Shown: positions 8,639 through 52,478 of the stretch, piece by piece
Position numbering within the stretch: position 1 is the stretch's first letter
Layout of the letters: each line of letters opens with the position of its first letter
Assembly: GCA_964589285.1 (NCBI GenBank)
Contig: CAZPSP010000001.1
Coordinates: forward strand, 1 to 52,478
Origin: an uncultured Dehalococcoidaceae bacterium
Lineage (GTDB): Bacteria; Chloroflexota; Dehalococcoidia; Dehalococcoidales; RBG-16-60-22
Length of the DNA: 52,478 nt
Direction of reading: 5' to 3'
Program-made: the position numbers and the translations under genes
Notes under the pieces: model-generated
Seen by the model: only the letters and a program-made list of their open reading frames with translations
Database searches by the model: none
What the model was told of the DNA's origin: nothing

Positions 8639-8659
8639 GGCGTTTCCGTTCCGGGTATG

Positions 8660-10144: not shown

Positions 10145-10160
10145 TATCTCATTCCCCCGG

Positions 10161-10709
10161 TTAACGTCTGTACATGGACACTATCAGAGCACCCTCGGCT
10201 TGGGACGGTTCCTCTTTATCCCCGATACCGTCACCATTGAGTTGGAGACCGGCGGTCACAACAGACCCGATATCTCCGTTTTCCAGAGTGGTAATAAAGT
10301 TCTCGATAGCGTCTATCTCCCCGGCGACCAGGACCTGGACCTGGTACTCCTCAAATCCACTGGATGTGGACGACCAGTCCGTCGTGCGGAGAGGTACAAT
10401 GGTGATGGCGTTTTCTTCAGCGATGGTCAGCATGGTATCGATGAATCCGGGGATGTAAATGTCATCCGGCAGTTCCGTGGATTCATACTCCAGTTGCGCC
10501 TGAAGTTCTTCCAATTGATATTGCAGCGTATCATCGATTTGAGGGCGGTTTTCCAGTTCTTTTTGCGTTTTTTCTATTTGAGCGGCCAGGACTTCCCGCT
10601 CATCTGCCGAGCGGGCCCGGGCAACATCGTAGATAAAGCCCGTCCCCCAGTAAATGAATGCCGCGATACAAATGACAATAACGCCGGCGATGATCAGTCT
10701 TTTTCGCAT
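10161..10709 (-). CDS. PilO-like pilus assembly protein
   Basis: 182 aa with an N-terminal TM helix (LIIAGVIVICIAAFIYW), a coiled coil and a small C-terminal domain. It lies between pilC and pilM/N. Confidence 0.6.
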   Translation of the reverse strand: MRKRLIIAGVIVICIAAFIYWGTGFIYDVARARSADEREVLAAQIEKTQKELENRPQIDDTLQYQLEELQAQLEYESTELPDDIYIPGFIDTMLTIAEENAITIVPLRTTDWSSTSSGFEEYQVQVLVAGEIDAIENFITTLENGDIGSVVTAGLQLNGDGIGDKEEPSQAEGALIVSMYRR

Positions 10710-10739
10710 CTGTTTACCTCTCCATGTACCCGTTCGCGG

Positions 10740-11954: not shown

Positions 11955-11966
11955 GACCCGTCTCCG

Positions 11967-21253: not shown

Positions 21254-21271
21254 GATTCAATTCCCCCTTAC

Positions 21272-22537: not shown

Positions 22538-22584
22538 CTTCGCTTCCTCCTATTTTTATCGTTTATTTTTATCGCCGGCAAGCA

Positions 22585-32676: not shown

Positions 32677-32714
32677 TAAAAAACCGGGCAGGGTGTCCTG
32701 CCCGGTTGCTTTTT
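32677..32714. terminator. bidirectional rho-independent terminator between convergent genes
   Basis: AAAAAA-CCGGGCAGG-gtgt-CCTGCCCGG-TTGCTTTTT: a 9-bp GC-rich stem (32684-32705) with U-tracts on both strands. Confidence 0.8.
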
Positions 32715-34191
32715 ACCTGCGGGGTCCCGGCTTGGGGATAATGCCGTTGGGATCGAACAGGGCGTTGACCTTCGCCTGCCAGGTCATATAGTTCGATATC
32801 GCGGGATTGACCAGTTCCGGATCCAGCCCCATCGGCACGGCGAACTTTCCTTCCAGCGCACGCATATTGGTCGCCTTACGCCATTCCGCGGCAGCTTCCG
32901 GCGCTCCCTCGGCTGACGTGGGCCGGTAGAATATCTCTGATTTCCCCAGGTGGCCCTGCTCTACGCCCCATCCGAAACAGCCGAAGAAAGCGGCGCCGTC
33001 ATCCATCGCCAGGCCTTTCTCGATGAGTTCGCCCTTGCGCTGCCCGGCTTCCATCAGCCACCGCATCGTGAGGTCCCTCTGGCCCATGATAGCGAAGCCT
33101 CCCCAGCCGGTAGCACCGACACGGAACGTTTCCCTGATGGAAGCGCAAACGCGGATACACTGGCTGAGCAGGATCCCGGCCACCTTCAGGTCTTCCGCTT
33201 CTTTCAGGGACTGGCCGCTGGTCTCTTTCAATATCTGATCAAGAACTTTCAGTTGATAGGCGAACTCGTCCGGCGAGTTGCCGATAATGATGAGCAGGAA
33301 GCCCGGACCCTGGACCTGCCTCCTGAGCCGCTCGAAAGTCGCGATGTCTTCCTCGTTGCTGGTGGATATATTCGCGGAGACCATCGCCATATTGAAGCAC
33401 ATCAGTTCATAGGAGATTTCAGCCTCGCCTATCTTGAGTTCCGCTTCGTACATCTTCTCTGCTGACGGGAAGCTGTAGTAACGGGTCAAGATATTGGGGG
33501 GCATTTCGCTGAGCAGGTATCTCGGCGATACGCCTGTCAGGGGGAATTCCGTCGGGCCCGGCCAGGGATACACCTTCTGGGCGGCCCTGGTCATAATGCC
33601 CGGCGTCAGGCCCGGAGGCACGGTGCCGCTGATCATGCAGCGGAGCGACGGCCCCGGACCGTCCCCGGAGAACCACTCATCGCAAGCCCCCAGGGATCCC
33701 AGCCTGAGCAGTTCACCTTCAGGGGTCACCCATTCCACCGCCAGGTAGTTCCGGTCGTCGCCGCCGGTGGTCTGGTCCATATGCCCGTGGCCTTTGAGCA
33801 TCGCGGAGCCGTTGGAACCGGCCCCCTTGATGCTGCAGTTAAGGCCCCGTTTCATCAGTTCCGCCTGTAGTTCCGCACCGATGACATAAGGTTCCACCAC
33901 GGCGTACATGTTCTTCTCGTTTATCTCAATAATCCTGTTCATCCGCCGCAGGTCGAAGAGTATCGTTCCGGGCGGATACATGCCGCCCCACCCCGACGAT
34001 ACCGCCCCGAACCCCAGCTTGTGCTTGTTGCACAGCTTCATCAAGGCCTGCACCTGCGCGGTGTTCTCCGGCAGGACCACGGCGCCGAACTCGATGCCAT
34101 AGTAGGACGGCATGATCGCCGGATCGTCGCAGATGTACTCCGGCCCGGTAATATCTTCAAACTCTTTATAGATCTCTTTGCTTAATGCCAT
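32713..34191 (-). CDS. FAD-binding oxidoreductase, paralog of 19784..21253
   Basis: 492 aa, colinear with the 489-aa paralog. Confidence 0.85.
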   Translation of the reverse strand: MALSKEIYKEFEDITGPEYICDDPAIMPSYYGIEFGAVVLPENTAQVQALMKLCNKHKLGFGAVSSGWGGMYPPGTILFDLRRMNRIIEINEKNMYAVVEPYVIGAELQAELMKRGLNCSIKGAGSNGSAMLKGHGHMDQTTGGDDRNYLAVEWVTPEGELLRLGSLGACDEWFSGDGPGPSLRCMISGTVPPGLTPGIMTRAAQKVYPWPGPTEFPLTGVSPRYLLSEMPPNILTRYYSFPSAEKMYEAELKIGEAEISYELMCFNMAMVSANISTSNEEDIATFERLRRQVQGPGFLLIIIGNSPDEFAYQLKVLDQILKETSGQSLKEAEDLKVAGILLSQCIRVCASIRETFRVGATGWGGFAIMGQRDLTMRWLMEAGQRKGELIEKGLAMDDGAAFFGCFGWGVEQGHLGKSEIFYRPTSAEGAPEAAAEWRKATNMRALEGKFAVPMGLDPELVNPAISNYMTWQAKVNALFDPNGIIPKPGPRR

Positions 34192-34223
34192 GATTCGTTA
34201 CCTCTCTCTCGGTCCGTTCTCGG

Positions 34224-35690
34224 TCAATAGCAAATCTTACCGGGGTTCATGATGTGGTTCGGGTCGAATACCGTTTTCATCCTGCGCAGCGCGGTCACCG
34301 TCGCGGCGTCCCGGTTCATGATGGCATCCACGTTGGTTCCGTAAGGCCGCGAGAAGAACGCGCCCTTTCCGGAAAGGTCCCTGACCGCCGACGCGGACAG
34401 TTCTTTAATCATCGCCGCTTCCCGGCGGTCCTCCGGGCTGTAGAAGAGGTTGAACTCGCAGTGACAGCTCGTCCCCTGGACCACCGGCTGGATATAAGTG
34501 CTCAGTTCGGAGGCCGGGTAGCCGGCTTCCTCGGTGAGACGGCCCATCGCGTCGATGAGTTCCTCCAGCCTGCCATAGTTAGTAATGAACATGACGTCTT
34601 CACAGGCGCCCTTGTTCCGCAATTTCCAGTGAGGTTCGTCGCAGGGCTGCTGGACGGCCTTGAGCAGTTCATTGGCGGATATACCGCCGAGCGACCTGAC
34701 CGATTCCAGCCCCAGCCGCTGGGTGATCCCCTTGATGTCCTTTATCTGGTACTGTATCCGGTCTTCCGGGAAGTACTCGTAACCGGCCAGGTTATAGAAC
34801 ACCATCCAGGGCGGCAGCGCGCCGACCCTGTTCTTGAATTCTGCCGGCCACTTCTTCGTCATCATGGCCGCCAGAGCGCTTCCATTAACGATGAAGCACT
34901 CGTTGACCAGCCTTCTCCGCACCAGCCATTGGGTCAAGTCAAACAGCCTTTCGAGTTTATCATCGCCTACCAGGAACGGCTCCTCAAGCTGAGGCAGCAA
35001 CTCACAACGCAAAGAAGCCCAGGTGACGATGCCCATCGTTCCCTGGGCGCCCTGGATGATACGGTGCCACCCGACCGTCCCTGGGCCGTACGGCGCTTTC
35101 TGCACCGCTCCCGCGGCCCATTGTTCTTCAATGGTACCCGGTCCGGCCGCCTGCCCCGTCCTGAATTCGTCGCCGGTCCCGAAAACCAGCCCCAGCGTGG
35201 CCAGGGGGTCCGATACGTCCCACTGGTACTTGGGCATGATGACCGGTTCCCGTTCCAGGAGGCTGCCGATGACCGACTTGGACTTCCTGGGCAGCAGCGG
35301 CATGTTGAGGCGAATCCCTTCCTTCGCCGCTGCCGGTATCAGCTCCCCGAAGGTCACACCGGGCTCGACATTGGCCACCCGGTGGTACCGGTCAACCCGG
35401 ATGATCCTTTTCATGCCGCTCAGGTCCACGATGACCGCTCCGCCGGTACCGGGGACAGTATCACCCCGGAAATGAGGAGAGCCGGAACTGACCGGAACTA
35501 ACGGTGTGCCGGTTTCGTTGGCGAGAGCGACGAGCTTCCGGACCTCTTCCGCATTGCGGGGCTTGACCACATACGCCGGTTTAACGCTGTTAACGAAACT
35601 GATATCCTGAGAGTAGGCATCCAGATCAGCCTGTTGAGTGCTGACATTTCCAGACCCTACTATTTTGCCAAGTTTCTCTTTCTGAATCAT
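34224..35690 (-). CDS. FAD-binding oxidoreductase (GlcD-like), paralog of 22585..24051
   Basis: The track ORF 34224..35813 was trimmed to the ATG at 35690, which has a GGAGG SD 5 nt upstream. MIQKEKLGKIVGSGNV aligns with MIAKEKLVKIVGAGNV of the paralog. C-terminal DPNHIMNPGKICY. Confidence 0.88.
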   Translation of the reverse strand: MIQKEKLGKIVGSGNVSTQQADLDAYSQDISFVNSVKPAYVVKPRNAEEVRKLVALANETGTPLVPVSSGSPHFRGDTVPGTGGAVIVDLSGMKRIIRVDRYHRVANVEPGVTFGELIPAAAKEGIRLNMPLLPRKSKSVIGSLLEREPVIMPKYQWDVSDPLATLGLVFGTGDEFRTGQAAGPGTIEEQWAAGAVQKAPYGPGTVGWHRIIQGAQGTMGIVTWASLRCELLPQLEEPFLVGDDKLERLFDLTQWLVRRRLVNECFIVNGSALAAMMTKKWPAEFKNRVGALPPWMVFYNLAGYEYFPEDRIQYQIKDIKGITQRLGLESVRSLGGISANELLKAVQQPCDEPHWKLRNKGACEDVMFITNYGRLEELIDAMGRLTEEAGYPASELSTYIQPVVQGTSCHCEFNLFYSPEDRREAAMIKELSASAVRDLSGKGAFFSRPYGTNVDAIMNRDAATVTALRRMKTVFDPNHIMNPGKICY

Positions 35691-35956
35691 GCCGCCCTCC
35701 TTTGCGGTTAACTTAATACTCGACGAGGATTTTGTCAAGAATTCCGCTATAGTTGGAACAAGGCTGACCGGATGGATGCAAGCTAGGGAAAACAACGAAT
35801 CGATAGTTAACAAAGAAACCGCCGCATTCTCTCGGATACAAACGACCCTGTTTTAATAAATCGATAACAACCTCTAAATCGAACCACATTTTTTCAACCT
35901 ATTTTCCATCACTCCCGCCCGGCTGGAAGCAAAAGAAACCGGATATCTGAATCATC

Positions 35957-39597: not shown

Positions 39598-40113
39598 ATG
39601 ACACAGGAAGCAATACTGGCGGAACTGGTTGAAGACAGGACCATCACCCTCACCGTCAACGGAGACGTTTATGAGGTGAACGTCCAGGCAAACTGGACGC
39701 TGGACTATGTACTCCGGGACAGGCTGGGGATGACCGGGACCAAGGAATTCTGCGGGCAGGGCGCCTGCGGGGCCTGCGCCGTCAATATCGGCGGAAGAGC
39801 AATCCTGTCCTGCATGACGCTGGCCATCGAGTGCGACGGTAAATCCATCGAGACGGTGGAAGGCATAGCCCGGACGAAACACCCGCTCATCGAAGCTTAT
39901 GTCAACCACCACTGCATGCAGTGTGGGTTCTGCACGCCCGGCTTCATCGTCACCGCCAAGTCACTGCTCGACAAGAACCCGGACCCCACCGTGGATGAGA
40001 TCAAAGAAGCCCTTGTCGGCAACCTCTGCCGGTGCGGCACCTACCCCCAGCACATCAAGGCCGTCCAGGACGCATCCCGGACACTCATGGAGGAAAAAAG
40101 CCATGAAAAATGA
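39598..40113 (+). CDS. (2Fe-2S)-binding small subunit of a xanthine dehydrogenase/aldehyde oxidase-family molybdoenzyme (CoxS-like)
   Basis: The track ORF was trimmed to the ATG at 39598, which has an AAGGTGA SD. Cluster motifs: CGQGACGACAV and CMQCGFCTPG...CRCGTY. Confidence 0.9.
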   Translation: MTQEAILAELVEDRTITLTVNGDVYEVNVQANWTLDYVLRDRLGMTGTKEFCGQGACGACAVNIGGRAILSCMTLAIECDGKSIETVEGIARTKHPLIEAYVNHHCMQCGFCTPGFIVTAKSLLDKNPDPTVDEIKEALVGNLCRCGTYPQHIKAVQDASRTLMEEKSHEK

Positions 40114-42562
40114 AGAATATTCCCGGATGCTGGGATCGTTCGATAACCTTAAAGCAGACCCGTATCCGCTCAAGGAATACAATGTCATCGGCAAGCCCGG
40201 CGTACGGCGCATCGACGGTATCGAGAAGGCCACCGGGGCCGCCAAATACACCATCGACGTCAAGCTCCCCGGCATGCTATACGGAAGGTTCCTCACCTCT
40301 CCCTACCCTCATGCTGAAATAGTCAGCATGGACACAGGCCGAGCGGAAAAACTGCCGGGCGTGAGGGCAATTCTGCGTTATGACGACCCGGAACTGCCGG
40401 AAGAAGCCTCGCTGGGCGGTCACGAGCCTTTCCCAACCGCCGTCCTGCCCGGTATCGCCCACTTCCAGGGAGAAGAGGTTGGGGCGTTCGTCGTCGCGGA
40501 GAGCGAAGAAATCGCCGAGGAAGCCCTGAAGCAGATAAGGGTTGAATGGAACATCCGGCCGTTTGTGCTCGACCCCGAGGAAGCCGCCCGGCCCGGAGCG
40601 CCGGTCTCCAATCCGGAGGCCCGTCCCGGCTCCAACACCGACACGGAAAACATCGTCATCGAAAAGCTTGGCGACGTGGAACAAGGGTTCGCCGAAGCTG
40701 ATAAAATCATCGAGTTCGAGTTTAAAAAAGGCCTCGATACCTGGATAGGCCCGGAAGTCCCCTGTGGAGTCTTCCGCTGGAACGGCGACCATGCCGAGGT
40801 CTGGCTGAAGCAGCAGCGACCGCATATCTCCAAGCGCCACATAGCTAGCTGGTACGGCGGCATTCCCATGAACAAGATCGATATTCACATGCTGTACCAG
40901 GGGGCCAGCTTCGGGGGGTGGAGCCAGGCGGCCTGGAACCTCGGCGGAACTTATTGCGCCGGCCTGGTGGCGAAACGTCTGGGACGGCCGGTGAAATGGA
41001 CGTTCAGCCGGCGGGAAGACTTTTTCGGCGGCGAGATGGACGAGGGCGTCTACCGCTACAAAGTGGGTGTCAAGAATGACGGTACCATCACCGCGGTTTA
41101 CGCTCATTCGCTGGTCACCAACCAGGCCCTGCCGGTCTTCGGTATCGTCCGCCACATCATGGAGAACACGAAGATACCCAACCTCTACGGCAAGTCCGAA
41201 GGGGTGCTGATCAACACGGGCCCGAACCTCGCCACCCGCTGCGAGATGAACTCCAACTGCCACAGCATGACGCAGGTGTTCGCCCGCGCCGCCGAGGCGG
41301 TCGGCATGGACCCAACGGAAGTAGCCCTGAAGAACGACGGCGCGGAAGGCCATGACATGGAGTGGCTGAATAAAAGGAAAGCCGAGATGGGCTTCGAGGT
41401 GCGGGACAGCCTGCGGGAATGCATCGAGAAAGGCAAGGCGGCCATCGGCTGGGACGAAAAATGGCACCTTCCCGGTACGAAAAAGCTGCCCAACGGCAAG
41501 ATGCATGGGCTCGGTTTCAACTGGTCTCACGAATGGGACGATTCCGGCGGTACGGCGGAAATCGCCATCTACCTGGAGCGCAACGATGCCACCGCTACCA
41601 TTTTGGGCTGCCGCTGCGATTGCGGCGTCAACGCCGAGACGGCCTACTGCCAGATAGCCGCGGACGAACTCGGCCTGCGCATCGAAGACGTCCGGTACAA
41701 GGGCCAGATAGACGCCGGTTTCTTCGCCATGACGCCGGACACCTCCACCAACATGTCCGTCAACGGAGCGGCGGTCAGGCATTGCGCCCGGCTCCTCAAG
41801 CAGAAGATACTGGCGCTGGCCGTGGAACCGCGGGGAAAAACACAATTGAACGAGTTCCCGCCCGCCTTTCCCGGCAAGAAGCCGGAGGAACTGGACATCA
41901 GGGACAGCGTAATATTTGAGATTGCCGATCCTGCCAACCGCATGACCCTCGCTGAATTCATCGGGCCGAGCGGGGCCATGGGGCCGTTCGACCCGCGGAC
42001 CGGGGAACCGGTCTGGGCCGCGAAGGAAGGCGTCAATTACCCGGTCAAGTTCACGCCGCCCCTCTTCGAGCACGCCTGGCATATCCAGCGCGGCACGTAC
42101 CTGGGCGTGCGGCTCCGTCTCTGCCGCCAGGCCCATTTCATGGAGGTGGAAGTCGATACCGAGACCGGTGAGATCGACGTCAAGCACATCGTCAACGTCA
42201 ACGATGTCGGGAAAGCGATCAGCATCGAAGGCTGCCACGGGCAGCAGTACGGCGGGGCCATCATGGGGCTGGGGCGCGGATTTACGGAAGACGTCATCCA
42301 CGACCCCAACACCGGCGTCATCCTCAATGGCAACCTGCTCAATTACAAGATACCGACGATGATGGACGTCGGGCCGATCGATACCATCCTCGTTGAGACC
42401 GGCATGGGGTACGGGCCCTACGGCGTCGTGGGCATCGGCGAAGATGTTGCCACCATTCTGCCGACGCTTATCGGGGTTGCCGTCCACAACGCTACCGGCA
42501 AATGGGTTGACCGCTACCCGGTCACGCCGGACGTTGTCCTGAGGGCACTGGGAAAAGCCTGA
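40103..42562 (+). CDS. molybdopterin-binding large subunit of a xanthine dehydrogenase-family enzyme (CoxL-like)
   Basis: The true start is taken as the ATG at 40103 (MKNEEYSRM), with a GGAGGA SD 8 nt upstream and an 11-nt overlap with the small-subunit gene. It has an a/b-hammerhead N-terminus (GKPGVRRIDGIEKATGAAKY) and a C-terminal GIGEDV motif. Confidence 0.9.
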   Translation: MKNEEYSRMLGSFDNLKADPYPLKEYNVIGKPGVRRIDGIEKATGAAKYTIDVKLPGMLYGRFLTSPYPHAEIVSMDTGRAEKLPGVRAILRYDDPELPEEASLGGHEPFPTAVLPGIAHFQGEEVGAFVVAESEEIAEEALKQIRVEWNIRPFVLDPEEAARPGAPVSNPEARPGSNTDTENIVIEKLGDVEQGFAEADKIIEFEFKKGLDTWIGPEVPCGVFRWNGDHAEVWLKQQRPHISKRHIASWYGGIPMNKIDIHMLYQGASFGGWSQAAWNLGGTYCAGLVAKRLGRPVKWTFSRREDFFGGEMDEGVYRYKVGVKNDGTITAVYAHSLVTNQALPVFGIVRHIMENTKIPNLYGKSEGVLINTGPNLATRCEMNSNCHSMTQVFARAAEAVGMDPTEVALKNDGAEGHDMEWLNKRKAEMGFEVRDSLRECIEKGKAAIGWDEKWHLPGTKKLPNGKMHGLGFNWSHEWDDSGGTAEIAIYLERNDATATILGCRCDCGVNAETAYCQIAADELGLRIEDVRYKGQIDAGFFAMTPDTSTNMSVNGAAVRHCARLLKQKILALAVEPRGKTQLNEFPPAFPGKKPEELDIRDSVIFEIADPANRMTLAEFIGPSGAMGPFDPRTGEPVWAAKEGVNYPVKFTPPLFEHAWHIQRGTYLGVRLRLCRQAHFMEVEVDTETGEIDVKHIVNVNDVGKAISIEGCHGQQYGGAIMGLGRGFTEDVIHDPNTGVILNGNLLNYKIPTMMDVGPIDTILVETGMGYGPYGVVGIGEDVATILPTLIGVAVHNATGKWVDRYPVTPDVVLRALGKA

Positions 42563-42593: not shown

Positions 42594-44930
42594 ATGAAAA
42601 AGTTTAAATACGCCGGCCCGGATTCACTGGAAAAGGCGGTCTCGATACTTGAAAAGTTCGGACGCAGGGCGAGGATCATCGCCGGCGGCACAGACCTCCT
42701 CGGAGAATTGAAGGACGCAGTACTCCCGAACTACCCGGAGGTCGTCGTTAATCTTAAGACAATCCCCGGACTGGACTACATCAGAGAAGAGAACGGCGTT
42801 CTCCATATCGGCGCCCTCACACGCCTGGAAGACATCACCACGAACGATTTGATACGCGAACGATACCCGCTTCTTTCCGAAGCTTCCCGCCGCACCGCCT
42901 CACCGCACATCCGGGAAATGGGCACCATTGCCGGGAACATCTGCCAGAGCAACCGATGCTGGTATTACTGGGTGGCGGACAACCGCTTCGATTGCCTGAG
43001 AAAGGGCGGTGCTACCTGCTTTGCCGTCAACGGAGACGCCCGCTACCATTCCATCTTCGGGAGCTCCCGCGTCGACCGCACCCCTTGCTCGGTGGAATGC
43101 CCGGCCGGCATCGATATCCCCGACTACATGGCGCGTATCCGGGCCAACGACATTGCCGGGGCGGCCCGGATTCTCATCGAGTCCAATCCCCTGCCCGCCA
43201 TCACCGGCCGGGTCTGTCCGCATTATTGCCAGGCGAAGTGCAACCGCGTTGGATATGACGAGTCCGTCTCCGTGCGGAACGTGGAACGGTTCCTCGGCGA
43301 TTACGTCCTTGAGAATCCGTCAATTTATTCCGAAAAGAAAACGGCTTCAGGTAAAAAGATCGCCGTCATCGGTTCCGGCCCGGCGGGGCTGGCGGCTGCT
43401 TTCTATTTGAACAGACTAGGCCACACCGTCACCGTTTATGAAAAAATGCCGGAAGCCGGCGGCCTCCTGACCTACGGCATCCCGCCTTACCGTCTGCCCA
43501 AGGACGTGGTGAACCGGCAGGTCTCGGTACTGGAGAAGGCAGGCATAAAATTTGAGTTGAATTCGACATTCGATGTCGATAAGCTTACACGCGAGCACGA
43601 TGCCGTATTCCTCGCCTGCGGAACCTGGAAAGACCGCCATTCCGGCATACCCGGCGAAGAACACCTGCTGTCCGGTCTTGACTTCCTGAAAAATGTCAAT
43701 ACCGGCAACCGCGCCGTCCCCGGTCAGAAGGTTGCGGTCATCGGCGGCGGGAACGTTGCCGTGGATGTCGCGCGGACACTGCTGCGGCTCGGGGCGGAAC
43801 CGGTCATGCTCTACCGGCGTACACTGGAGGAGATGCCCGCCCTCAGGGAAGAGGTAGAAAAGCTGGTCGAGGAGAACATCGAGGTACGTTTCCTGACCCT
43901 GCCCGTTTCGGCCGCGAAGAAGGACGGCAAGGTCGCCCTGACCTGCACGAAGATGCAGCTCGGCGCGCCGGACGAATCGGGCAGGCCGCGTCCCGAACCA
44001 GTCCCCGGTTCGGAGTTTACGCTGGAGTTCGACGCCGTCATGGAAGCCCTCGGCGAAGCAGCGGACCTTTCGATCGTTCCCGGTGAATACCTCGATGCAG
44101 GCAGCTTGAAAGTAGCTGACAACGGATCCATCGGCGGTAACATCTTTGCCGGCGGCGACTTCGTTACCGGACCTTCCACCGTGGTACAGTCTATCGCCTC
44201 CGGTCGTGAGGCCGCTAACAGCATTGACCGTTTCCTCGGCGGCAAGACGGAACCGCCCGAACCGAAATCCGCCTGGCGTGAACCCGATACTTTCGACAGC
44301 GCCTCTCTCGCCAAGACAACCGCCGCCGAAGCGCCGGAACTGCCGGCCGGACAACGAATCGCAAACCTCGATGTTGAGGACGCGGGCGGCCTGTTGCCGG
44401 ATGCCGTCGCCGCGGAAGCCAATCGCTGCTTCAACTGCGGCTGCGTGGCGGTCAATCCTTCCGACCTCGCTCCCGCCCTCATCGTACTTGAGGCACAGAT
44501 AAAGACCACGAAGAGGACCATTCAGGCGACGGAGTTTTTCACCGTTAACGGGGAAAAGACGACCGTCCTCGACGATGATGAAATCGTCATCGAGATCATC
44601 GTCCCGAAACCGGGACCCGGCGTTAAATGCAAATTCCTGAAATCCGCCATCCGCAAGTCCATCGATTTCCCGCTGGTCAACTGCGCCGCGGCGATAGAAA
44701 CGCAAAACGGTACCATCAAAAAAGCCCGGATATGCCTGAACTCGGTGTACACTATACCCTATCCGGTGAAAAAGGCGGAAGCTTACCTGGAAGGCAAAAG
44801 CATCGAAGAGCCGACCGCGGAGACCGCCGCTTACCTCATCACGGACGATGCCGTCCCGCTGCTCAACAACCGGTACAAGATACAGATTGCGCGGGCGCTG
44901 GTCAAGCGGGTCATCCTGGCCTGCGGTTGA
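42594..44930 (+). CDS. FAD-binding subunit (CoxM-like) with a nested GltD-like Fe-S/NAD(P)H oxidoreductase insertion
   Basis: 778 aa. Residues 1-155 are FAD_binding_5-like (IIAGGTDLL, TIAGNICQ). Residues 160-610 are GltD-like (CPAGIDIP...GRVCPHYCQAKC, KIAVIGSGPAGLAAAF, VAVIGGGNVAVD, AGGD). Residues 611-778 resume the FAD-binding fold (CVAVNPSDLAPALIVLEA) and the CO-dehydrogenase flavoprotein C-terminal-like domain. Confidence 0.85.
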   Translation: MKKFKYAGPDSLEKAVSILEKFGRRARIIAGGTDLLGELKDAVLPNYPEVVVNLKTIPGLDYIREENGVLHIGALTRLEDITTNDLIRERYPLLSEASRRTASPHIREMGTIAGNICQSNRCWYYWVADNRFDCLRKGGATCFAVNGDARYHSIFGSSRVDRTPCSVECPAGIDIPDYMARIRANDIAGAARILIESNPLPAITGRVCPHYCQAKCNRVGYDESVSVRNVERFLGDYVLENPSIYSEKKTASGKKIAVIGSGPAGLAAAFYLNRLGHTVTVYEKMPEAGGLLTYGIPPYRLPKDVVNRQVSVLEKAGIKFELNSTFDVDKLTREHDAVFLACGTWKDRHSGIPGEEHLLSGLDFLKNVNTGNRAVPGQKVAVIGGGNVAVDVARTLLRLGAEPVMLYRRTLEEMPALREEVEKLVEENIEVRFLTLPVSAAKKDGKVALTCTKMQLGAPDESGRPRPEPVPGSEFTLEFDAVMEALGEAADLSIVPGEYLDAGSLKVADNGSIGGNIFAGGDFVTGPSTVVQSIASGREAANSIDRFLGGKTEPPEPKSAWREPDTFDSASLAKTTAAEAPELPAGQRIANLDVEDAGGLLPDAVAAEANRCFNCGCVAVNPSDLAPALIVLEAQIKTTKRTIQATEFFTVNGEKTTVLDDDEIVIEIIVPKPGPGVKCKFLKSAIRKSIDFPLVNCAAAIETQNGTIKKARICLNSVYTIPYPVKKAEAYLEGKSIEEPTAETAAYLITDDAVPLLNNRYKIQIARALVKRVILACG

Positions 44931-45105: not shown

Positions 45106-46800
45106 ATGAACAATAAACCAAGTAAAAGCGCCGCATCATTCCAGGGACTGGAAAACGCCGATATCAGGAACGTCGTGAAGTCCATGGGCTACACGGATGA
45201 CGATCTCTCGTCAGGCCGTCCGGTCATCGGCATTGCCAACTCATGGAACACCCTGATACCCGGCCATTTCAACTTCCGGGAGATCAGCGAACAGGTGAAG
45301 AAAGGTATCCACCGCGCCGGGGGTACGGTCTTCGAGTTCGGCACCATCGGCCTGTGCGACGCCATCTGCAAGGAGAACTTCAACTACGTTCTCCCCTCAC
45401 GTGAGATAATTTGCGATTCAATCGAGGCCATGGCCGGGGCGAACCCTCTGGACGGCCTCGTCCTGCTGGCCTCCTGCGACAAGATCGTGCCGGGCATGCT
45501 CATGGCCGCCGCCCGCTTGAATGTACCCGCGATTCTCGTCAACAGCGGTCCCATGCTGGGCGGACCGCCATTTTCCGGGCGCAAAGCCGATTCCACCTCC
45601 GTCTCCGAGGCCCTGGGCATGTACAAGGCCGGCAACCTGTCCCTGGATGAATACCGTGACATAGAAGACCTGTCCTGTCCCACGTGCGGCTCCTGCTCCT
45701 TCATGGGCACCGCCAACACCATGTGCTGCCTTGCCGAGGCCATGGGCATGACGCTGACGGACAGCGCATCGATACCCGTCGTCTATGCGGAACGGCTCCG
45801 GATAGCCGAGAGGGCGGGAGAGGCTATCTGTCATCTCGTGAAAAACGGCATTACCGCCAAGCAGATCATCGATAAACGGTCCCTGGAAAATGCCGTCCGC
45901 GTTTGCCTGGCCATCGGCGGTTCCACCAACGCCGTTCTCCATCTGACCGCTATCGCCTACGAGGCCGAGGCGGACATCGATATCCTGGACACCTTCGACA
46001 AGTTCAGCAAGACCACACCGACGATTGCTAGAGTTTATCCCGCCGGCAGCGCAGACATGGAAGACCTGTGGAAAGCCGGCGGTATTCCGCGGGTTATCTC
46101 TAACCTCCGAAGCTTGCTGGACATGGACGTTATGACCTGCACCGGCCGGACGATGCGGGAGAACATCGATACCTTCCATTACCGGTTCCCGGAGAACCCG
46201 GAAGTCATTCGTACCGTCGATGACCCCTTCGCCATGTCGGGCGGGCTTGCCGTGATACGGGGCAACCTGGCGCCTGATACCGGTATCAGCAAGCCGGCCG
46301 CCATCGATCCCGAGGTCAGGAAGTTCACCGGGACGGCCGTGGTGTTCGATTCCGAGGAAGACGCCAACCGGGCCATCCTCGACGGCAAGGTCAAAGCCGG
46401 CAACGTAGTCGTTATCCGCTACGAAGGCCCCAAGGGCGGGCCGGGCATGGTGGAAATGTACCGCGCCCTGAAATACCTGCACGGCCTCGGCCTGCACAAG
46501 TCCACCGCCGTGATTACGGACGGGCGTTTCTCCGGCACGAACAACGGCTGCTTCGTGGGGCACATCTCGCCGGAAGCGTTCGAAGGCGGGCCGCTGGCCG
46601 TAGTCGAGAACGGCGATACCATCACGATAGACGTACTGGAAAGCTCCATCCATCTGCACGTTCCGGACGAAGAACTGACCCAACGCCTGAAAGCCTGGCG
46701 GCAGCCGCCGCTCAAGGTCAAGAAAGGTTATCTTGCCCTCTATTCCCGGCTGGCAAGCTCTGCCGACAAGGGCGCGATCATCCGTTACCCGGATGCATAA
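45106..46800 (+). CDS. IlvD/Edd family dehydratase (dihydroxy-acid or sugar-acid dehydratase)
   Basis: Motifs SCDKIVPGM, CPTCGSCSFMGTANTM, GGSTNAVLH and TDGRFSG. 564 aa. An AGAGG SD lies upstream. Confidence 0.9.
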   Translation: MNNKPSKSAASFQGLENADIRNVVKSMGYTDDDLSSGRPVIGIANSWNTLIPGHFNFREISEQVKKGIHRAGGTVFEFGTIGLCDAICKENFNYVLPSREIICDSIEAMAGANPLDGLVLLASCDKIVPGMLMAAARLNVPAILVNSGPMLGGPPFSGRKADSTSVSEALGMYKAGNLSLDEYRDIEDLSCPTCGSCSFMGTANTMCCLAEAMGMTLTDSASIPVVYAERLRIAERAGEAICHLVKNGITAKQIIDKRSLENAVRVCLAIGGSTNAVLHLTAIAYEAEADIDILDTFDKFSKTTPTIARVYPAGSADMEDLWKAGGIPRVISNLRSLLDMDVMTCTGRTMRENIDTFHYRFPENPEVIRTVDDPFAMSGGLAVIRGNLAPDTGISKPAAIDPEVRKFTGTAVVFDSEEDANRAILDGKVKAGNVVVIRYEGPKGGPGMVEMYRALKYLHGLGLHKSTAVITDGRFSGTNNGCFVGHISPEAFEGGPLAVVENGDTITIDVLESSIHLHVPDEELTQRLKAWRQPPLKVKKGYLALYSRLASSADKGAIIRYPDA

Positions 46801-46864: not shown

Positions 46865-47797
46865 CTATTCCCAGTCCGGCGGGCCTACCTGCTTCTGCTG
46901 GTCGTAGATATCGTTGTAGATGACCTTCCCGAAGTTCATATACGTGTCCCAGCGAGGGTGCCGGGGTTCGTCCGGGCAGGCGCGCATAATAGCGTCGTGG
47001 CGGGCGGCATAACCGGCCTTCCATTCCGGGTGGGTCATGATATAAAGATCATTGTTGCGGATGCCCCGCAGGACGCGCTCGCCGGTCTCGAGCGGATCCA
47101 TGGCGATGTCCTTCACCGGGGGGCGTTTCCGCTGCCCGCCGTCCTTCGGTGGTGGCGGCGGCCAGACTTCACCCTCGTTGCGCAGGTGTTCCGGCCGGTT
47201 CTCGAATGTCGACCTTCCCAGGTCCGTCGCGGTCAGCCCCGGGACCAGGATGGAAACGCCGATGTTCTTTGGTTTGAGTTCACCGGCAATGCTCTCCATG
47301 AGACCGCACACGGCGTACTTGGTGGTGCAGTAGATAGCCATATTGTCCGTACCCATCAGACCGCAGGTGGAAGAGGTGCTGACGATGTGCCCGCCTTCTC
47401 CATGTCTGATGATACGGGGCAGGATGGTCATGACGCCGTTGATGACGCCCCAGAGATTAACGTTGATGCCGTACTCCCAGTCCTTATAGTTGATCTTGTC
47501 GATCGGGCCGCCGCAGCCGATGCCCGCATTGTTGACGAGCACATGTATCTTACCGTAGACCTTTTCGGCCTCGTCGGCGGCGCGTACGTAGGCATCGCGG
47601 TCGGTCACGTCCAGATTGATGGGGTACACGTCCCCGCCGTTCTCCCTGAACCAGTCCATCGCTTCATCCAGCGCGTATTGCCGCATATCGACGATGACCA
47701 CTTTCATCTTGTGTTTCGCGAACACTTTGGCGATACCAAGACCGATGCCGCTGGCGCCGCCGGTGATGAACGCGACTTTTCCTTCGAACTTTTCCAT
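46865..47797 (-). CDS. SDR family oxidoreductase (310 aa, extended C-terminus)
   Basis: The track ORF was trimmed to the ATG at 47797, which has an AGGAG SD. It lies 17 nt after the upstream stop. Motifs: VAFITGGASGIGLG and NNAG, and the catalytic YCTTK. Confidence 0.88.
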   Translation of the reverse strand: MEKFEGKVAFITGGASGIGLGIAKVFAKHKMKVVIVDMRQYALDEAMDWFRENGGDVYPINLDVTDRDAYVRAADEAEKVYGKIHVLVNNAGIGCGGPIDKINYKDWEYGINVNLWGVINGVMTILPRIIRHGEGGHIVSTSSTCGLMGTDNMAIYCTTKYAVCGLMESIAGELKPKNIGVSILVPGLTATDLGRSTFENRPEHLRNEGEVWPPPPPKDGGQRKRPPVKDIAMDPLETGERVLRGIRNNDLYIMTHPEWKAGYAARHDAIMRACPDEPRHPRWDTYMNFGKVIYNDIYDQQKQVGPPDWE

Positions 47798-47814
47798 TCT
47801 GCGTCTCCTTCGTC

Positions 47815-49509
47815 CTAATGCGAGATACCGCACGAGCCGTCAGCGCAGGCGATTCCCCCCGGCATACGCAGCGGCCGTTCATCCTTGCGGATGCCGCCTT
47901 TCGGTATCCATGGGTCGACAAGGACCGTCTGGAAATAGGTAAAATCGGTGGTTATCCATAGCGGATTGGTTTCCCCGCCAACGACCACGAAATTGACCAT
48001 GTCCGGGTTCTTGACCGGGAAGTCGGTCCTCTCCATAAGCCATTCGCTCAGTTTGCGCGGGTCATCGAAGCCTTCTTCGCGCTTGAGGCTCTTGGCGACG
48101 AGGGGGTCGATGACGAAGGTATACGAGCCGCCGAACGGTCCCGACGGTTTCATCTTTTCCAGCATCTGCTGAGACAGCCCGAAGCCGAGGTTCTGCATGT
48201 TCCAGCCCCTGAACAGACTCACCGTGCTCTGCTCCTTCTGGTATCCCTTCCGCACGTGGAACGGCTCCCAGGGGCTGTTCTCCTCATTTTCCGCGCAGCA
48301 CATGTTGTTGTAGTTGAGGTTATGTCCGGTACTGGCCGTGAACGTCGCTCCGAGCCTGGCGTCCCCCAGGTTGATACTCATCAGCGTCCATGCCCGCCCG
48401 ATGACTGAATTGGCGTAGTTGAACGGACTCAATGCCGCCCGGCCGCAATTCATGCCGCATTCGTTCCGAACCGGTCCGTTGACCACCATCATGCTGGCGA
48501 AGGAAGTGGTCGAGCTGGGCATGGACGGTCTCCCGGAAGCACCCAGCGCCAGGATGACCGGGAAGTGCTCCGGTCTCGCCCCGGCCATAACGGCGATGAC
48601 TGCTACCTTTTCCACGTTGTACTTGAGCCGTTCCTCGTGGGTGGTGACCGACATCATCCCGACATACTCGTCCGGCGCCCGTCCGGTACCGGTCAGCATC
48701 TCTGCTACACGTTCCTCGGTCGGCAGGACGATGGGCAGGCCGTCCGTCCAGCCGTTCTCCAGGAAGAGCCGGTGTAGTTCTTCCTCGGTGGCCGGTTCGA
48801 GCAGTCTCGGCCGCTGCGGCCTCTTGATCACTTTAGGATGGAGTTCCGCCTCGGTCAGCGGGCTGGTAAGAGCGTGGAAGATCTCGTCGAGCAGAGGCGC
48901 CCCGGAGACCGGGTCTTTGCCGGTGATGTATTCCCTTACGACCTCTCGTGGAATATAGCCCACCGGGTAAGGCGGGAAGGTCCAGCGCAGGTTCATGCCG
49001 TGGCTGCGGCCGTCACGCTGAACGTAATCAGCGAACATGGCGGTCACGATGGGGGCCGTGGGTATGCCATAGTCATGCTCAAGCGTCCGGGCAAATTCGG
49101 CGACACTCGCCGAACAGCCGTCTCAGCCACCCACACCAAGAATGGCGGCGTCACCGTTAGCCTTGATCTCTTTCCAGAGTTCCGGCTCGTCCGTGAACAT
49201 GCTCGTTTTCTTATGGCGCAGCACCGTTTTGATCTCCGGCCGGTTCCGGTTCAGCCAGTCCTGGAGTTCCTCCATAAACTCCTTGCTGCCGGCAAATCCC
49301 GTATTAACGAGGTACACGGTCTTGCCTTCCAGCGTATCCAAACGCGAGGCCATCTTCAGCGATTCCAGTGTCTCCTCGAACTGTCTCGGCTGGTATTCGG
49401 GGTCGTGGATCGCCCGGGGCGATGAATCGGGATCGAGACGGCGCCCGAAGATACCGCTGGGCTGTCCTACCGGGTCCAGGACCGTCAGTTTGGCACCTTT
49501 TCTTGGCAT
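47815..49509 (-). CDS. predicted selenoprotein, 564 codons with in-frame UGA (Sec129) at 49125-49123; U-x-x-C motif; function unknown
   Basis: Track ORFs 49123..49509 and 47815..49047 are in the same frame. The 75 nt between them are stop-free (DGCSASVAEFARTLEHDYGIPTAPI). The only good SD (AGGAG) is at the upstream ATG at 49509, and there is none before the downstream ORF. A SECIS-like hairpin follows the UGA. Confidence 0.7.
49090..49119 (-). promoter_or_regulatory. SECIS-like recoding stem-loop 3 nt downstream of the in-frame UGA
   Basis: mRNA sense: GGC-UG-UUCGGCG-AGUGU-CGCCGAA-UUU-GCC. This gives a 7-bp upper stem (8 bp with A-U closure), a 3-bp lower stem and G/U residues in the apical loop. 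The loop starts 16 nt after the UGA. Confidence 0.6.
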
Positions 49510-49620
49510 TTTACTCTCCTGACAAATTTATATCGTTTATGATAGTTCCTCTTTTGCTTTCGCAAAATACTAATCCAACCGCAGGTAAATTTCAAGTCCT
49601 ACCCGTCTCAACGGGCAGTT

Positions 49621-49649: not shown

Positions 49650-49700
49650 CAGGTAATCAGCGTAAGCACATTATCCGAGACCTACCCCCGGAGGAGACGC

Positions 49701-50669
49701 ATGACAATTGCCAACGAGACCATGATTGATTTATACCAGACGATGTTGACCATCCGTCGCTTCGAGGAACGCTGTATTGAAGACTTCGAGAGCGGCACCA
49801 TCCCCGGCCTGATCCACTCTTACATCGGCGAAGAAGCCATTGCCACCGGGGTTTGCGCCCATCTGAGAAAGGATGACCGCATCGTCAGTTACCACCGCGG
49901 GCACGGCCATACCATCGCCAAGGGGGCGGACCTCAACCGCATGATGGCGGAAGTGTACGGAAGAACGACCGGCTACTGTAAGGGCAAAGGAGGCTCGATG
50001 CATGTAGCAGACTTCGATATCGGCATGCTGGGCGCCAACGGCATCGTGGGCGGGGGCATACCCATCGGCGCCGGGGCAGCGATCGCCACCCAACTGGAGG
50101 GAGGAGACAAAATAGCCGTGCTCTTCTTCGGAGACGGCGCTACCAATGAGGGCGAGTTCCACGAAGTACTCAATCTGGCTTCCATCTGGAAACTGCCGCT
50201 GCTCTTCGCCTGCGAGAACAACGGCTGGGGCGTGAACACGCCGGTCAAGTACGCCACGGGCCTGGACCATATCTCGGACCGCGCAACCGGCGGCTACGGC
50301 ATCCCGAGTACGGTTGTGGACGGCAACGACGTCCGCGCCGTTTATGAAGCTACGAAAAAGGCCGTCGACCACGTGCGCACCCACGCCGGTCCGTACTTCA
50401 TGGAATATATTACCTACCGCTGGCGCGCCCATTATGAAGGACCGGGCATGCCGGACCTCCGCCCGGAGGAACTGCTCACCGAATGGCAGAAACGCTGTCC
50501 GGTGAAGTGTTTTGAGGATGTCCTCCTTAATGAAGGCGTCGTCACCCGCGCAGACCTGGATGAAATGAATGAGGCTGTCATGGCGCGTATCGAAGAAGCC
50601 GTCAGGTTCGCCAGCGAAAGCTTGTGGCCGGCCCCGGAAGATGCTTTACAGGATGTCTATTCACCGTAA
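49701..50669 (+). CDS. thiamine-diphosphate-dependent 2-oxoacid/acetoin dehydrogenase E1 alpha subunit
   Basis: The track ORF was trimmed to the ATG at 49701, which has a GGAGGAG SD. MLTIRRFEE...HSYIGEEA...YHRGHGH, and the TPP motif GDGATNEGEFHE...NNGWG. Confidence 0.9.
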   Translation: MTIANETMIDLYQTMLTIRRFEERCIEDFESGTIPGLIHSYIGEEAIATGVCAHLRKDDRIVSYHRGHGHTIAKGADLNRMMAEVYGRTTGYCKGKGGSMHVADFDIGMLGANGIVGGGIPIGAGAAIATQLEGGDKIAVLFFGDGATNEGEFHEVLNLASIWKLPLLFACENNGWGVNTPVKYATGLDHISDRATGGYGIPSTVVDGNDVRAVYEATKKAVDHVRTHAGPYFMEYITYRWRAHYEGPGMPDLRPEELLTEWQKRCPVKCFEDVLLNEGVVTRADLDEMNEAVMARIEEAVRFASESLWPAPEDALQDVYSP

Positions 50670-50692
50670 AAGTACCGAGGAATGAGAATAAG

Positions 50693-51646
50693 ATGAGAAA
50701 GATCAGTTATGCACGGGCTGCTTCTGAAGCCCTGATGGAAGAGTTCCGGCGCGATCCCAAAACGCTCCATCTGGCTACGGATATGGAGCAGGAACTGCTC
50801 GATGAGTTCGGTCCGGACCGCATTCGTCAGCTCCCCATCGCGGAAAGTTCCTTCGTGGGGGCGGCTATCGGCCTGGCCGGTTCCGGCTTCCGGCCGGTGG
50901 TGAACGTGCGCATGGCCACCTTCGCCTTCGTCGCCATGGACCAGTTCGTCAACCAGGCGGCCAAGATAACCTACATGTTCGGCGGTCAACGGAGCTTCCC
51001 CATCCTTTACCGGATGACCGTCGGGGCCAGCAAATCCTTCGCCGCGCAGCACTCGATAAACCCCTATTCCATGTACATGAACGTACCGGGCCTCAAACTC
51101 ATCCTTCCGGCCACGCCGTATGATATCAAAGGACTGCTGAAGACGGCCATTCGCGACAACAACCCGGTCATCAGCTTCGAACACGTCGGCCTCGGGGACA
51201 TCGAAGGAGAAGTACCGGAAGACGACTACACCATACCCTTCGGGCAGGCCTTTGTCCGCCGCGAGGGTGAGGACGTTACGGTGGTAGCCTTGGCGAAGAT
51301 GATGCACGAAGCCCTGGCCGTCGCCGGTGAACTGGAAAAAGAAGGTATTTCAATGGAGATCATCGACCCCCGCACCCTGGTCCCGCTGGATACGGATACG
51401 ATCAAGGACTCAGTCAGGAAGACCGGCCGTCTGGTCGTTATCGATGAGGCATGCCTGACCTGCAGTGCCGCCGCAGAGATAACAGCGCGTATCGTGGAAG
51501 ACCCGGACGTTTTCAGCCATTTAAAATCTCCTCCCCGGCGCGTGTGCGGCCTGGACGTGCCGATTCCCTACAGCCCGCCGATGGAACGTTTTGCCCTCCC
51601 CGGCCGCGATGATATCCGGGCTGCTGTAAAGAGCATTGTGAGGTGA
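50693..51646 (+). CDS. 2-oxoacid/acetoin dehydrogenase E1 beta subunit (transketolase-like)
   Basis: The track ORF was trimmed to the ATG at 50693, which has a GAGGAA SD. Typical E1-beta pattern: ISYARAASEALMEEF...PIAESSFVGAAIGLA...IDPRTLVPLD. Confidence 0.9.
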   Translation: MRKISYARAASEALMEEFRRDPKTLHLATDMEQELLDEFGPDRIRQLPIAESSFVGAAIGLAGSGFRPVVNVRMATFAFVAMDQFVNQAAKITYMFGGQRSFPILYRMTVGASKSFAAQHSINPYSMYMNVPGLKLILPATPYDIKGLLKTAIRDNNPVISFEHVGLGDIEGEVPEDDYTIPFGQAFVRREGEDVTVVALAKMMHEALAVAGELEKEGISMEIIDPRTLVPLDTDTIKDSVRKTGRLVVIDEACLTCSAAAEITARIVEDPDVFSHLKSPPRRVCGLDVPIPYSPPMERFALPGRDDIRAAVKSIVR

Positions 51647-51992: not shown

Positions 51993-52478
51993 CTAAAGAT
52001 GCCGGAATAAACCTTCCACATTAATCGGATCGAGACGCTCGATCATCGGCATTAGCAAGTCAGCATCTTGCTCCATGAGCACGATAAGAGCTACTTTTGC
52101 GGGATACTCCTCAATCATCAGAGGATTAGCGATAGCCGTCAGCCCGTCTCCCATTTCATCATCGAGTACGGTAATATGCCTGGCGAGGTGCGGCTTTCCT
52201 TCTTTGATAGCCATATCCACGAGCGATCCCGGCTCGATTTTGCGTCCCTTCCTCGGGAAGAAACCGTTGAGGCCATAAACGTTAGCCTCTGGGTCTTGCT
52301 CATTGTTGCTGCTGGTCCAGTAGGTCACCTGCCACCCATCATCATCACCACCGGTAGGCTCATAGAGAGCCCCGTAGAAAAAGAGCTTCCCCTTCAGAGC
52401 TTCGCCGAGCCTCAATAAAACCTGCGAGCAGCTTTTCGAGTAATGGTTGGCCAGTTCGATTATATCGAAGCCGGTTTC
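51993..52478 (-). CDS. hypothetical protein, partial (N-terminus beyond the right edge)
   Basis: The track ORF 51993..52415 starts at a TTG, but my translation shows the frame stays open to 52478 (ETGFDIIELANHYSKSCSQVLLRLGEA...). GC looks lower than in the rest of the window. No family recognised. Confidence 0.55.
   Translation of the reverse strand, partial: ETGFDIIELANHYSKSCSQVLLRLGEALKGKLFFYGALYEPTGGDDDGWQVTYWTSSNNEQDPEANVYGLNGFFPRKGRKIEPGSLVDMAIKEGKPHLARHITVLDDEMGDGLTAIANPLMIEEYPAKVALIVLMEQDADLLMPMIERLDPINVEGLFRHL

Follow-up and report, generated by a model that had tools for sequence, protein, structure and literature searches.

The UGSC-containing protein is a selenoprotein that has been listed, with its function given as unknown, since 2007-2008; it was initially detected in Hyphomonas neptunium and marine metagenomes, it is among the most abundant selenoprotein families in the Global Ocean Sampling (GOS) data, and a 2008 report describes UGSC as being fused to a conserved domain, 'Unknown_1' (PMC1976440, PMC2398784, PMC9312934, PMC13188914). 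A thioredoxin-fold oxidoreductase was also proposed for UGSC in 2008. The present analysis concerns a two-gene unit in a 52,478-nt stretch of DNA from an uncultured Dehalococcoidaceae bacterium (GenBank assembly GCA_964589285.1, contig CAZPSP010000001.1, positions 1 to 52,478), which is referred to below as the window. The unit consists of the gene of a long-form UGSC-family selenoprotein and the gene of a short-chain dehydrogenase/reductase (SDR). The comparative data show that an in-frame UGA codon is read as selenocysteine (Sec), and it is found that the Sec-containing domain is joined in the same frame to a large, uncharacterised C-terminal domain (C-domain), which is likely the 'Unknown_1' domain of the 2008 report. 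Together these features point to a selenol/thiol-dependent redox enzyme.

Gene layout and family membership

The selenoprotein gene is complete and lies at 47815-49509 on the minus strand, coding for 564 residues and ending in a TAG stop. The sole in-frame TGA of this 564-codon frame is at 49123-49125 (-), codon 129, with the surroundings GVGG-U-DG-C, and the codon of the second residue of the motif, C132, is at 49114-49116 (-). A GGAGAG ribosome-binding site is present 5' of the ATG at 49509, and a consensus scan finds a weak promoter-like element, TTGAAA-17-TAGTAT (49567-49595, (-)), in the divergent intergenic region upstream of the gene. A preliminary description of this DNA had reported a Sec gene followed by an SDR gene, with E1 genes in divergent and an IlvD gene in convergent orientation. 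This two-gene observation is confirmed, and the strings quoted with it (LFLENGWTDGLPIVLPTEERVAEML, SSTTSFASMMVVNGPVRNECGMNCGR and the C-terminal ...PGGIACADGSCGISH) are all found in the translation.

Residues 40-193 (48931-49392, (-)) form an alpha/beta domain that includes U129-x-x-C132 and matches the UGSC profile PF24696 of Pfam with 76.3 bits (cutoff 25, E 4e-21) over profile positions 4-157 of 172, and the U/C-x-x-C motif is at the conserved position of the UGSC family. By these Pfam and motif criteria, the window protein belongs to the UGSC family. It scores 54.7 bits against NF041046, the short-form equivalog, for which the cutoff is 125, and the long cysteine (Cys) forms that are named UGSC by NCBI also reach just 40-53 bits with this model. 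By its sequence, the window protein is therefore a member of a long UGSC branch and not the short equivalog of ~147 aa. Long Cys homologs (~555 aa) from cultured Alphaproteobacteria already carry the name 'UGSC family (seleno)protein' in NCBI and UniRef. The preliminary description had presented the unit as one of unknown function pointing to an undescribed redox step; the protein itself is not an unrecognised one but belongs to a family catalogued since 2007-2008, with long Cys forms that are already named.

AlphaFold2 (AF2) models were made of a full-length natural Cys ortholog (P0003) and of the window protein's own C-domain, and both were compared with the PDB using Foldseek. The modeled UGSC domain has the order beta-alpha-beta-alpha-beta, with the motif predicted to be located after the third strand, at the N-terminus of a helix. 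No thioredoxin is found among its top Foldseek matches, which are flavodoxin-, Rossmann- or PTS-IIB-like, all with E>1e-3.

Decoding of the in-frame UGA

The comparative set consists of 80 loci, from a scan with one genome per species, in which both query halves were matched. It covers at least 10 lineages at phylum or class level, including Dehalococcoidales, other Chloroflexota, Acidobacteriota, Bacillota, Thermodesulfobacteriota/Deltaproteobacteria, Actinomycetota, Alpha-, Beta- and Gammaproteobacteria, Latescibacterota, Binatia and Verrucomicrobiia. The column of codon 129 is readable in all 80: it holds TGA in ~66 loci and TGC or TGT in ~13 (mostly of Alpha- and Betaproteobacteria), a TGA or Cys codon thus being present in 79/80, and the motif is lost in the remaining one. 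The second Cys of U/C-x-x-C is invariant wherever the motif is present. The ~13 Cys orthologs are called as single proteins of 550-600 aa; P0003 and L001 have the motif CDGC, with 61% identity over the full length, and the motif CSTC occurs in about a dozen alpha- and betaproteobacterial loci.

A putative bacterial selenocysteine insertion sequence (SECIS) hairpin with an 8-bp stem, UUCGGCGA-GUG-UCGCCGAA, is found at 49096-49114 (-), beginning 9 nt past the UGA, as judged from the predicted fold and from covariation. In 16 distinct genes of the window clade this hairpin is 98% paired, and two of its pairs are compensatory, with both sides changed. In 61 other Sec genes, an equivalent hairpin whose register is somewhat shifted has 70% pairing, with double changes in 7/8 pairs and a covariation score that is reached by no shuffle. 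The hairpin is lost in 16 Cys-codon genes, where the pairing of the corresponding columns falls to 31%, under the shuffle mean. Two features expected of a bacterial selenoprotein gene are present, namely a Cys-codon ortholog at the site of the in-frame UGA and a stem-loop shortly 3' of it. In another genome (L060, alphaproteobacterial), selA and selB are located directly 3' of the family member.

These comparisons show that UGA codon 129 is decoded as selenocysteine, aided by the predicted downstream hairpin. The comparative evidence for this decoding is strong, despite the fact that no SECIS family of Rfam matches the region around the UGA, either at the gathering threshold or at E up to 10, and that no tRNA, including tRNA-Sec, is found within the 52-kb window. 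Almost every public homolog has been divided at the UGA codon by gene calling, and this is why the top database matches are 'hypothetical proteins' of 393-425 aa with 70-75% query coverage.

The C-terminal domain and its fusion with UGSC

Residues ~196-535 (47905-48924, (-)) form an uncharacterised conserved domain of ~340 aa, as delimited from homolog clusters, conservation and the AF2 model. Its motifs are WTDGLPIV-PT, NAVMAG-PE, VNGP-R, N-AN-IGR and AENEE-SPW. Family-wide, P263, A303, G310, G345 and E407 are invariant, and D256, T264, E300, N367, R372, W414 and others are conserved at 90% or above. In the 120 sequences closest to the window protein, which are also used for the other clade counts below, D256, E300, N367, R372, E407, W414 and C404 are each conserved in 120/120, C404 being the clade-invariant one.

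The C-domain has no match in Pfam or NCBIfam, and PDB sequence searches with the protein and with the family profile return chance matches only. The AF2 models have high confidence scores (a predicted local distance difference test score, pLDDT, of 89.7 and a predicted template modelling score, pTM, of 0.88 for full-length P0003; 93.1 and 0.90 for the window C-domain). Foldseek against the PDB finds nothing under E 1e-3 for full-length P0003, the matches being generic alpha/beta sandwiches on the N-domain, and for the C-domain alone the best match has an E of 0.22 and a TM score <0.2. Weak Foldseek matches to GH3 C-domains, lumazine synthase, tubulin and 'Toblerone-fold' amide hydrolases, with TM <0.25, are not meaningful and were rejected. 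The C-domain is thus predicted to have a confident fold that is without a relative among solved structures. This is in agreement with the earlier remark that it cannot be assigned to a characterised enzyme: nothing is found with Pfam, NCBIfam or a PDB sequence search, and no Foldseek match is better than E 0.2.

In an exhaustive HMMER search (E<=1e-3), 3803 clusters at 50% identity match the C-domain. The architectures observed include Sec-truncated forms of ~430-450 aa, fused full-length forms of 530-620 aa, and tandem duplicates without UGSC. The fused forms have the CxxC motif, which is rarely lost. Both halves are in one frame in 80/80 loci retrieved, so the co-occurrence of the two halves elsewhere, which had been proposed as a check on the fusion, is seen in every locus examined. 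Judged from this set, the fusion of UGSC and the C-domain is ancient.

Tandem-domain proteins of 710-740 aa, with two copies of the C-domain and no UGSC, are represented by P0170, P0175, P0229 and L091:7001-9154; the L091 gene adjoins a gene of an SBP_bac_5 solute-binding protein and has SDR genes nearby. It is also observed that in many genomes paralogs of the long UGSC form occur two or three side by side (L003, L005, L007, L009, L012, L037, L041, L061 and L077), often differing in the U-x-x-C variant and in the C-terminus. From their sequences, these side-by-side paralogs look like a substrate-diversified enzyme family.

The C-terminal Cys pair

Most members of the family terminate in ...IDxWR. 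The window clade is extended beyond this point by ...PK-G-R-D--PLRMP----C-x-D-G-x-C-G..., and in the window protein this clade-specific extension is PKGGIRKDERPLRMPGGIA-C555-ADGS-C560-GISH (47818-47904, (-)), with the Cys pair at 47830-47847. The tail is restricted to the window clade, apart from a shorter variant in a few paralogs. This clade comprises the close Dehalococcoidales proteins, the Desulfobacteraceae Cys form and 54-62%-identical genes of Acidobacteriota, Bacillota, Deltaproteobacteria and Chloroflexia. C555 is kept in 116/120 and C560 in 119/120 of its sequences. The last ~19 residues are the sole low-confidence part of the AF2 models, and for this reason the tail is predicted to be flexible. 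The earlier impression of a flexible-looking Cys-x4-Cys tail is borne out in this way, and it is possible that the tail acts as a redox relay. A different C-terminus, strongly basic and free of Cys (...RRRAARRKRHAAALSRSGYDL), is observed in L010, L025 and L058 from Actinomycetota and Acidobacteria.

Gene neighbourhoods of the family

The SDR gene (46865-47797, (-)) is separated from the selenoprotein gene by a 17-nt spacer (47798-47814, (-)) that contains the AAGGAG Shine-Dalgarno sequence of the SDR. No terminator-like site is found between the two genes, which are probably co-transcribed. The SDR has 310 aa, including a C-terminal extension, matches PF00106 with E 5e-51, and has the motifs of the classical SDR family (TGGASGIG at residue 12, NNAG at 89, STSS at 140 and YCTTK at 156). 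No NCBIfam equivalog is reached at its cutoff; the nearest model, PRK06194, scores below it.

Neighbours were counted with tblastn and Pfam tables, ORF clustering having been set aside on account of antisense ORFs in GC-rich loci. In the close Dehalococcoidales loci, SDR orthologs (59-69% identity) are directly downstream in all cases and are duplicated in some. SDRs with 40-49% identity flank the copies in Bacillota, Acidobacteria, Thermodesulfobacteriota and Actinomycetes, and a 41%-identical CPGC form has an SDR (32% identity to the window SDR) directly upstream. The link with an SDR, which had been proposed from the window only, therefore recurs in relatives. It is seen in 7/11 tail-bearing and in 5/69 tail-less loci (Fisher p=6e-5, at the level of species loci, the p-values of these adjacency comparisons being indicative only because the loci are phylogenetically non-independent). 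The wider contexts of the close Dehalococcoidales loci vary, with CoA-transferases and 2-hydroxyacyl-CoA-dehydratase-like genes in one locus and URO-D-type methyltransferases in another.

In the tail-less clades, the commonest neighbour is a thioredoxin-reductase-type (TrxR-like) flavoprotein of ~325 aa, whose gene is often 3-30 nt downstream, also in the cultured Bradyrhizobium sp. USDA 3240 and Neorhizobium sp. DT-125. The score of this flavoprotein with TIGR01292 is 280 bits, and its redox motif is CAAC. Its gene adjoins 24/69 tail-less and 0/11 tail-bearing loci (Fisher p=0.03, again indicative only). The Desulfobacteraceae Cys form (L001:8001-10547) is located amid HdrA-like and FlpD (MvhD) genes. 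These two contexts, the TrxR-like gene and the Hdr/MvhD-like cluster, argue for a redox role of the family.

Two loci have further features of their own. In the metagenome-assembled genome of an uncultured Alphaproteobacteria bacterium (isolate MFD05684.bin.1.14; L060:6001-13236), the gene order is long UGSC selenoprotein, TrxR-like gene, selA, selB, which suggests that the long UGSC protein is a principal reason for that genome to keep its Sec machinery. The L001 Cys form has an N-terminal hydrophobic segment that is absent from the window protein, and it is followed by a gene of DUF1573, which is listed in reviews as another selenoprotein family.

The genes that border the unit in the window are E1 alpha/beta genes (49698-51646, (+)), divergent from the selenoprotein gene, and an IlvD/Edd gene (45106-46800, (+)), convergent with the SDR/selenoprotein unit. 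Neither the E1 nor the IlvD genes are next to any close relative, and their use as pathway evidence, as in the preliminary description, is rejected because these neighbours are not conserved. The selenium-dependent redox step proposed there is plausible and is strengthened by the TrxR-like partner in other clades; its placement in a catabolic pathway is not established. Of the E1, IlvD and Mo-hydroxylase neighbours in the window, only the large subunit of the Mo-hydroxylase recurs, and it does so in one relative: it is found, 77% identical, near the UGSC gene in L003.

Proposed mechanism

It is rather likely that the window protein is a selenol/thiol-dependent redox enzyme, a reductase, in which the U-x-x-C motif works with the C-domain and with an SDR partner. 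The C-domain would bind the substrate, with E407 (of AENEE), D256, N367 and R372 as candidate acid/base residues and, in the window clade, C404 beside them. A catalytic C-domain is suggested by the strict conservation of its polar residues and by its occurrence without UGSC, as tandem duplicates. The selenol of U129 would attack either the substrate itself or an intermediate formed from it, and C132 would resolve the adduct, generating a selenenylsulfide, such that the U-x-x-C motif would cycle between the selenol/thiol and selenenylsulfide states. In other lineages, the motif could be re-reduced by the neighbouring TrxR-like flavoprotein or by an Hdr-like complex. In the window clade, where a TrxR-like neighbour is not found, the C555-x4-C560 tail would probably serve as a dithiol shuttle that connects the enzyme with a general reductant. 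The SDR probably shares the substrate of the selenoprotein and would make or consume a carbonyl or hydroxyl group on it.

Several points weigh against this proposal. In the literature, the function of the family is given as unknown. SDR adjacency is missing in about a third of the tail-clade loci (4/11), and the contrast in TrxR-like adjacency between tail-bearing and tail-less loci reaches just p=0.03, with phylogenetically non-independent loci. P0126, P0139 and L017 are without CxxC, and the motif is therefore not essential to the C-domain; the same holds for the tail, since L010, L025 and L058, relatives with the UDGC motif, are without the Cys pair.

Alternative explanations

The alternative that survives best, although it is unlikely, is a more specific chemistry, an SDR-primed reductive cleavage. 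By analogy, the SDR would oxidise a hydroxyl group beside a C-X bond (an ether, amine, thioether or halide), the U129 selenol would displace X at the alpha-carbon, and C132 would resolve the selenoether to an Se-S bond, following the logic of the selenoprotein B of glycine/proline reductase or of the LigD/LigF/LigG beta-etherase system, without pyruvoyl or glutathione. The enrichment of SDR genes beside the window clade is consistent with this chemistry, as are the PQQ (pyrroloquinoline quinone) alcohol dehydrogenases, which convert an alcohol to a carbonyl and neighbour several Acidobacteria loci, and the MarR regulators, AMP-dependent ligases, CoA-transferases and 2-hydroxyacyl-CoA dehydratases that are found nearby. 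The many tandem paralogs per genome suggest diverse substrates, and the region of the Sec motif weakly resembles PrdB (E 0.043). However, the proposal is purely analogical, the PrdB match is not significant and Pfam GRDB gives none, no single catabolic neighbour is conserved, and in most family members the SDR is not adjacent. In its fullest form, to which we likewise assign a low probability, the C-domain would be a new catalytic fold that, with Sec-x-x-Cys, performs selenium-dependent cleavage of C-O, C-N or C-S bonds beside an SDR-made carbonyl, in a soluble system independent of pyruvoyl and glutathione. If this were true, such a cleavage system would be widespread in Dehalococcoidia, Acidobacteriota and rhizobia, being re-reduced by the TrxR-like enzyme or by the built-in dithiol shuttle of the window clade.

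A general antioxidant or disulfide-repair function is distinctly improbable. In this case a TrxR-reduced UxxC motif would detoxify peroxides or repair oxidised thiols, with the C-domain as a scaffold, in the manner of AhpF/AhpC or of a Trx/Msr pair. The combination of UxxC with a dedicated TrxR-like or AhpF-like partner is as expected for such a function, and the literature presumes a thiol-oxidoreductase function for most selenoproteins that were defined by bioinformatics. Against this function, the 340-residue domain shows strict conservation of Asp, Glu, Asn and Arg residues and is also found without UGSC, and the family occurs in up to three paralogs per locus in some genomes, is set among catabolic and transport genes, and is carried abundantly by strict anaerobes.

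Metal or metalloid handling is more improbable still. Sec129, Cys132 and the C555/C560 pair would bind a soft metal or metalloid (Hg, As, Cu, Ni or Fe) for detoxification or delivery, or would form a cofactor site. This idea draws on the presence of four Se/S ligands, of which the flexible tail provides two, and on other UxxC selenoprotein families that are metal-related in the literature (MerT-like proteins, cation ATPases and ArsC). Against it, metal-resistance or metallochaperone genes are present in none of the neighbourhoods examined, the tail is missing from most of the family, and the TrxR-like partner argues for disulfide turnover. Both the antioxidant and the metal roles become less likely in view of the gene neighbourhoods and of the large conserved domain, which is found without UGSC as well.

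The view that the UGA is a genuine stop, by which the locus would consist of three genes, coding for a UGSC fragment of 128 aa, a protein of ~410 aa and the SDR, and the fusion would be a read-through artefact, could appeal to the splitting of nearly all public homologs at the UGA by gene callers, to the Rfam SECIS models without a match and to the window without tRNA-Sec, but it has practically no probability left and is effectively refuted by the comparative data, as the frame is kept across the TGA in ~66 loci, Cys is at exactly that codon in ~13 orthologs called as single 550-600-aa proteins, the downstream hairpin covaries in TGA genes only, and selA and selB adjoin the family member in L060.

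Other genes of the window

The Mo-hydroxylase large subunit of the window is encoded at 39899-42562 (+) and is followed at 42594-44930 (+) by a gene with an unusual medium-subunit architecture. Its xanthine-dehydrogenase-type FAD domain (FAD_binding_5 ... CO_deh_flav_C) is split by a dihydropyrimidine-dehydrogenase/GltD-like module (Fer4_20 + Pyr_redox_2), the product being a medium subunit that incorporates an NAD(P)H-oxidoreductase. Glycolate-oxidase-like genes occur twice: at 19784-24051 (-), with a CCG-domain (GlcF/HdrD-like) protein between two FAD_binding_4 proteins, and at 32713-35813 (-), with an FAD_binding_4 pair. A type IV pilus/type II secretion-like cluster at 6214-13673 (-), which is unrelated to the selenoprotein unit, contains a prepilin with an N-methylation motif, two T2SSE ATPases, a T2SSF protein and a PilN-like protein. 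Three ORFs of the window are without a Pfam match: 3884-6211 (-), of 775 aa, 408-1283 (+), of 291 aa, and 51993-52415 (-), of 140 aa.

Significance

The window contributes a further example of a catalogued, uncharacterised family and introduces no new type of system. In aquatic metagenomes, UGSC proteins rank with the most abundant of the predicted selenoproteins, and databases already contain thousands of homologs that share the architecture of the window protein. Three leads are provided by the long form. Its Sec domain is fused to a member of a domain family that is very large (at least 3800 clusters at 50% identity) and has a confident predicted fold; the TrxR-like partner that it has in many clades establishes in which direction the redox reaction runs and suggests an assay; and its Cys versions in cultured Bradyrhizobium, Neorhizobium and Roseomonas make genetics and Sec-free expression feasible. 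Identification of the substrate would allow a function to be assigned to thousands of genes of Dehalococcoidia, Acidobacteriota and Proteobacteria that are now annotated as 'hypothetical'.

Comparison with known systems

In the Grd/Prd systems, a selenol attacks, a nearby Cys resolves, and the thioredoxin system re-reduces the pair. The U-x-x-C motif of the window protein is also seen in GrdB/PrdB (PF07355), where it is part of the substrate-specific reductase subunit. In contrast, genes of GrdA, GrdE, PrdA or a pyruvoyl subunit are not found nearby, and the partner of the Sec domain is here a fused domain. Membership of GrdB/PrdB was considered and rejected: PF07355 gives no match, the score with TIGR04483 is 13 bits where 300 would be required, and Grd/Prd genes are found neither in the window nor in the related loci.

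High-molecular-weight thioredoxin reductase has a flexible C-terminal redox tail. By analogy, and in concept, the predicted flexible Cys-pair tail of the window protein could carry electrons between a buried redox centre and an external partner. Unlike that enzyme, the window protein has no flavin or NAD(P)H domain, its Sec is N-terminal, and its tail is C-x4-C and not GCUG. In other clades, the arrangement of the family gene followed by the gene of the ~325-aa CAAC flavoprotein is similar to the TrxB-Trx and AhpF-AhpC pairs, and by this likeness UGSC would be the dithiol carrier; the window clade differs in being without such a neighbour, and the top fold matches of UGSC are not of the thioredoxin fold.

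The closest described system remains the 'UGSC-containing protein' of Zhang and Gladyshev, with which the window protein has in common the U/C-x-x-C position, the SECIS-like hairpin and the alternation of Sec and Cys. It differs from the motif that gave the family its name in having U-D-G-C and not U-G-S-C. Compared with the family at large, the window clade adds the C-x-D-G-x-C tail, and it pairs with an SDR and not with a TrxR-like gene.

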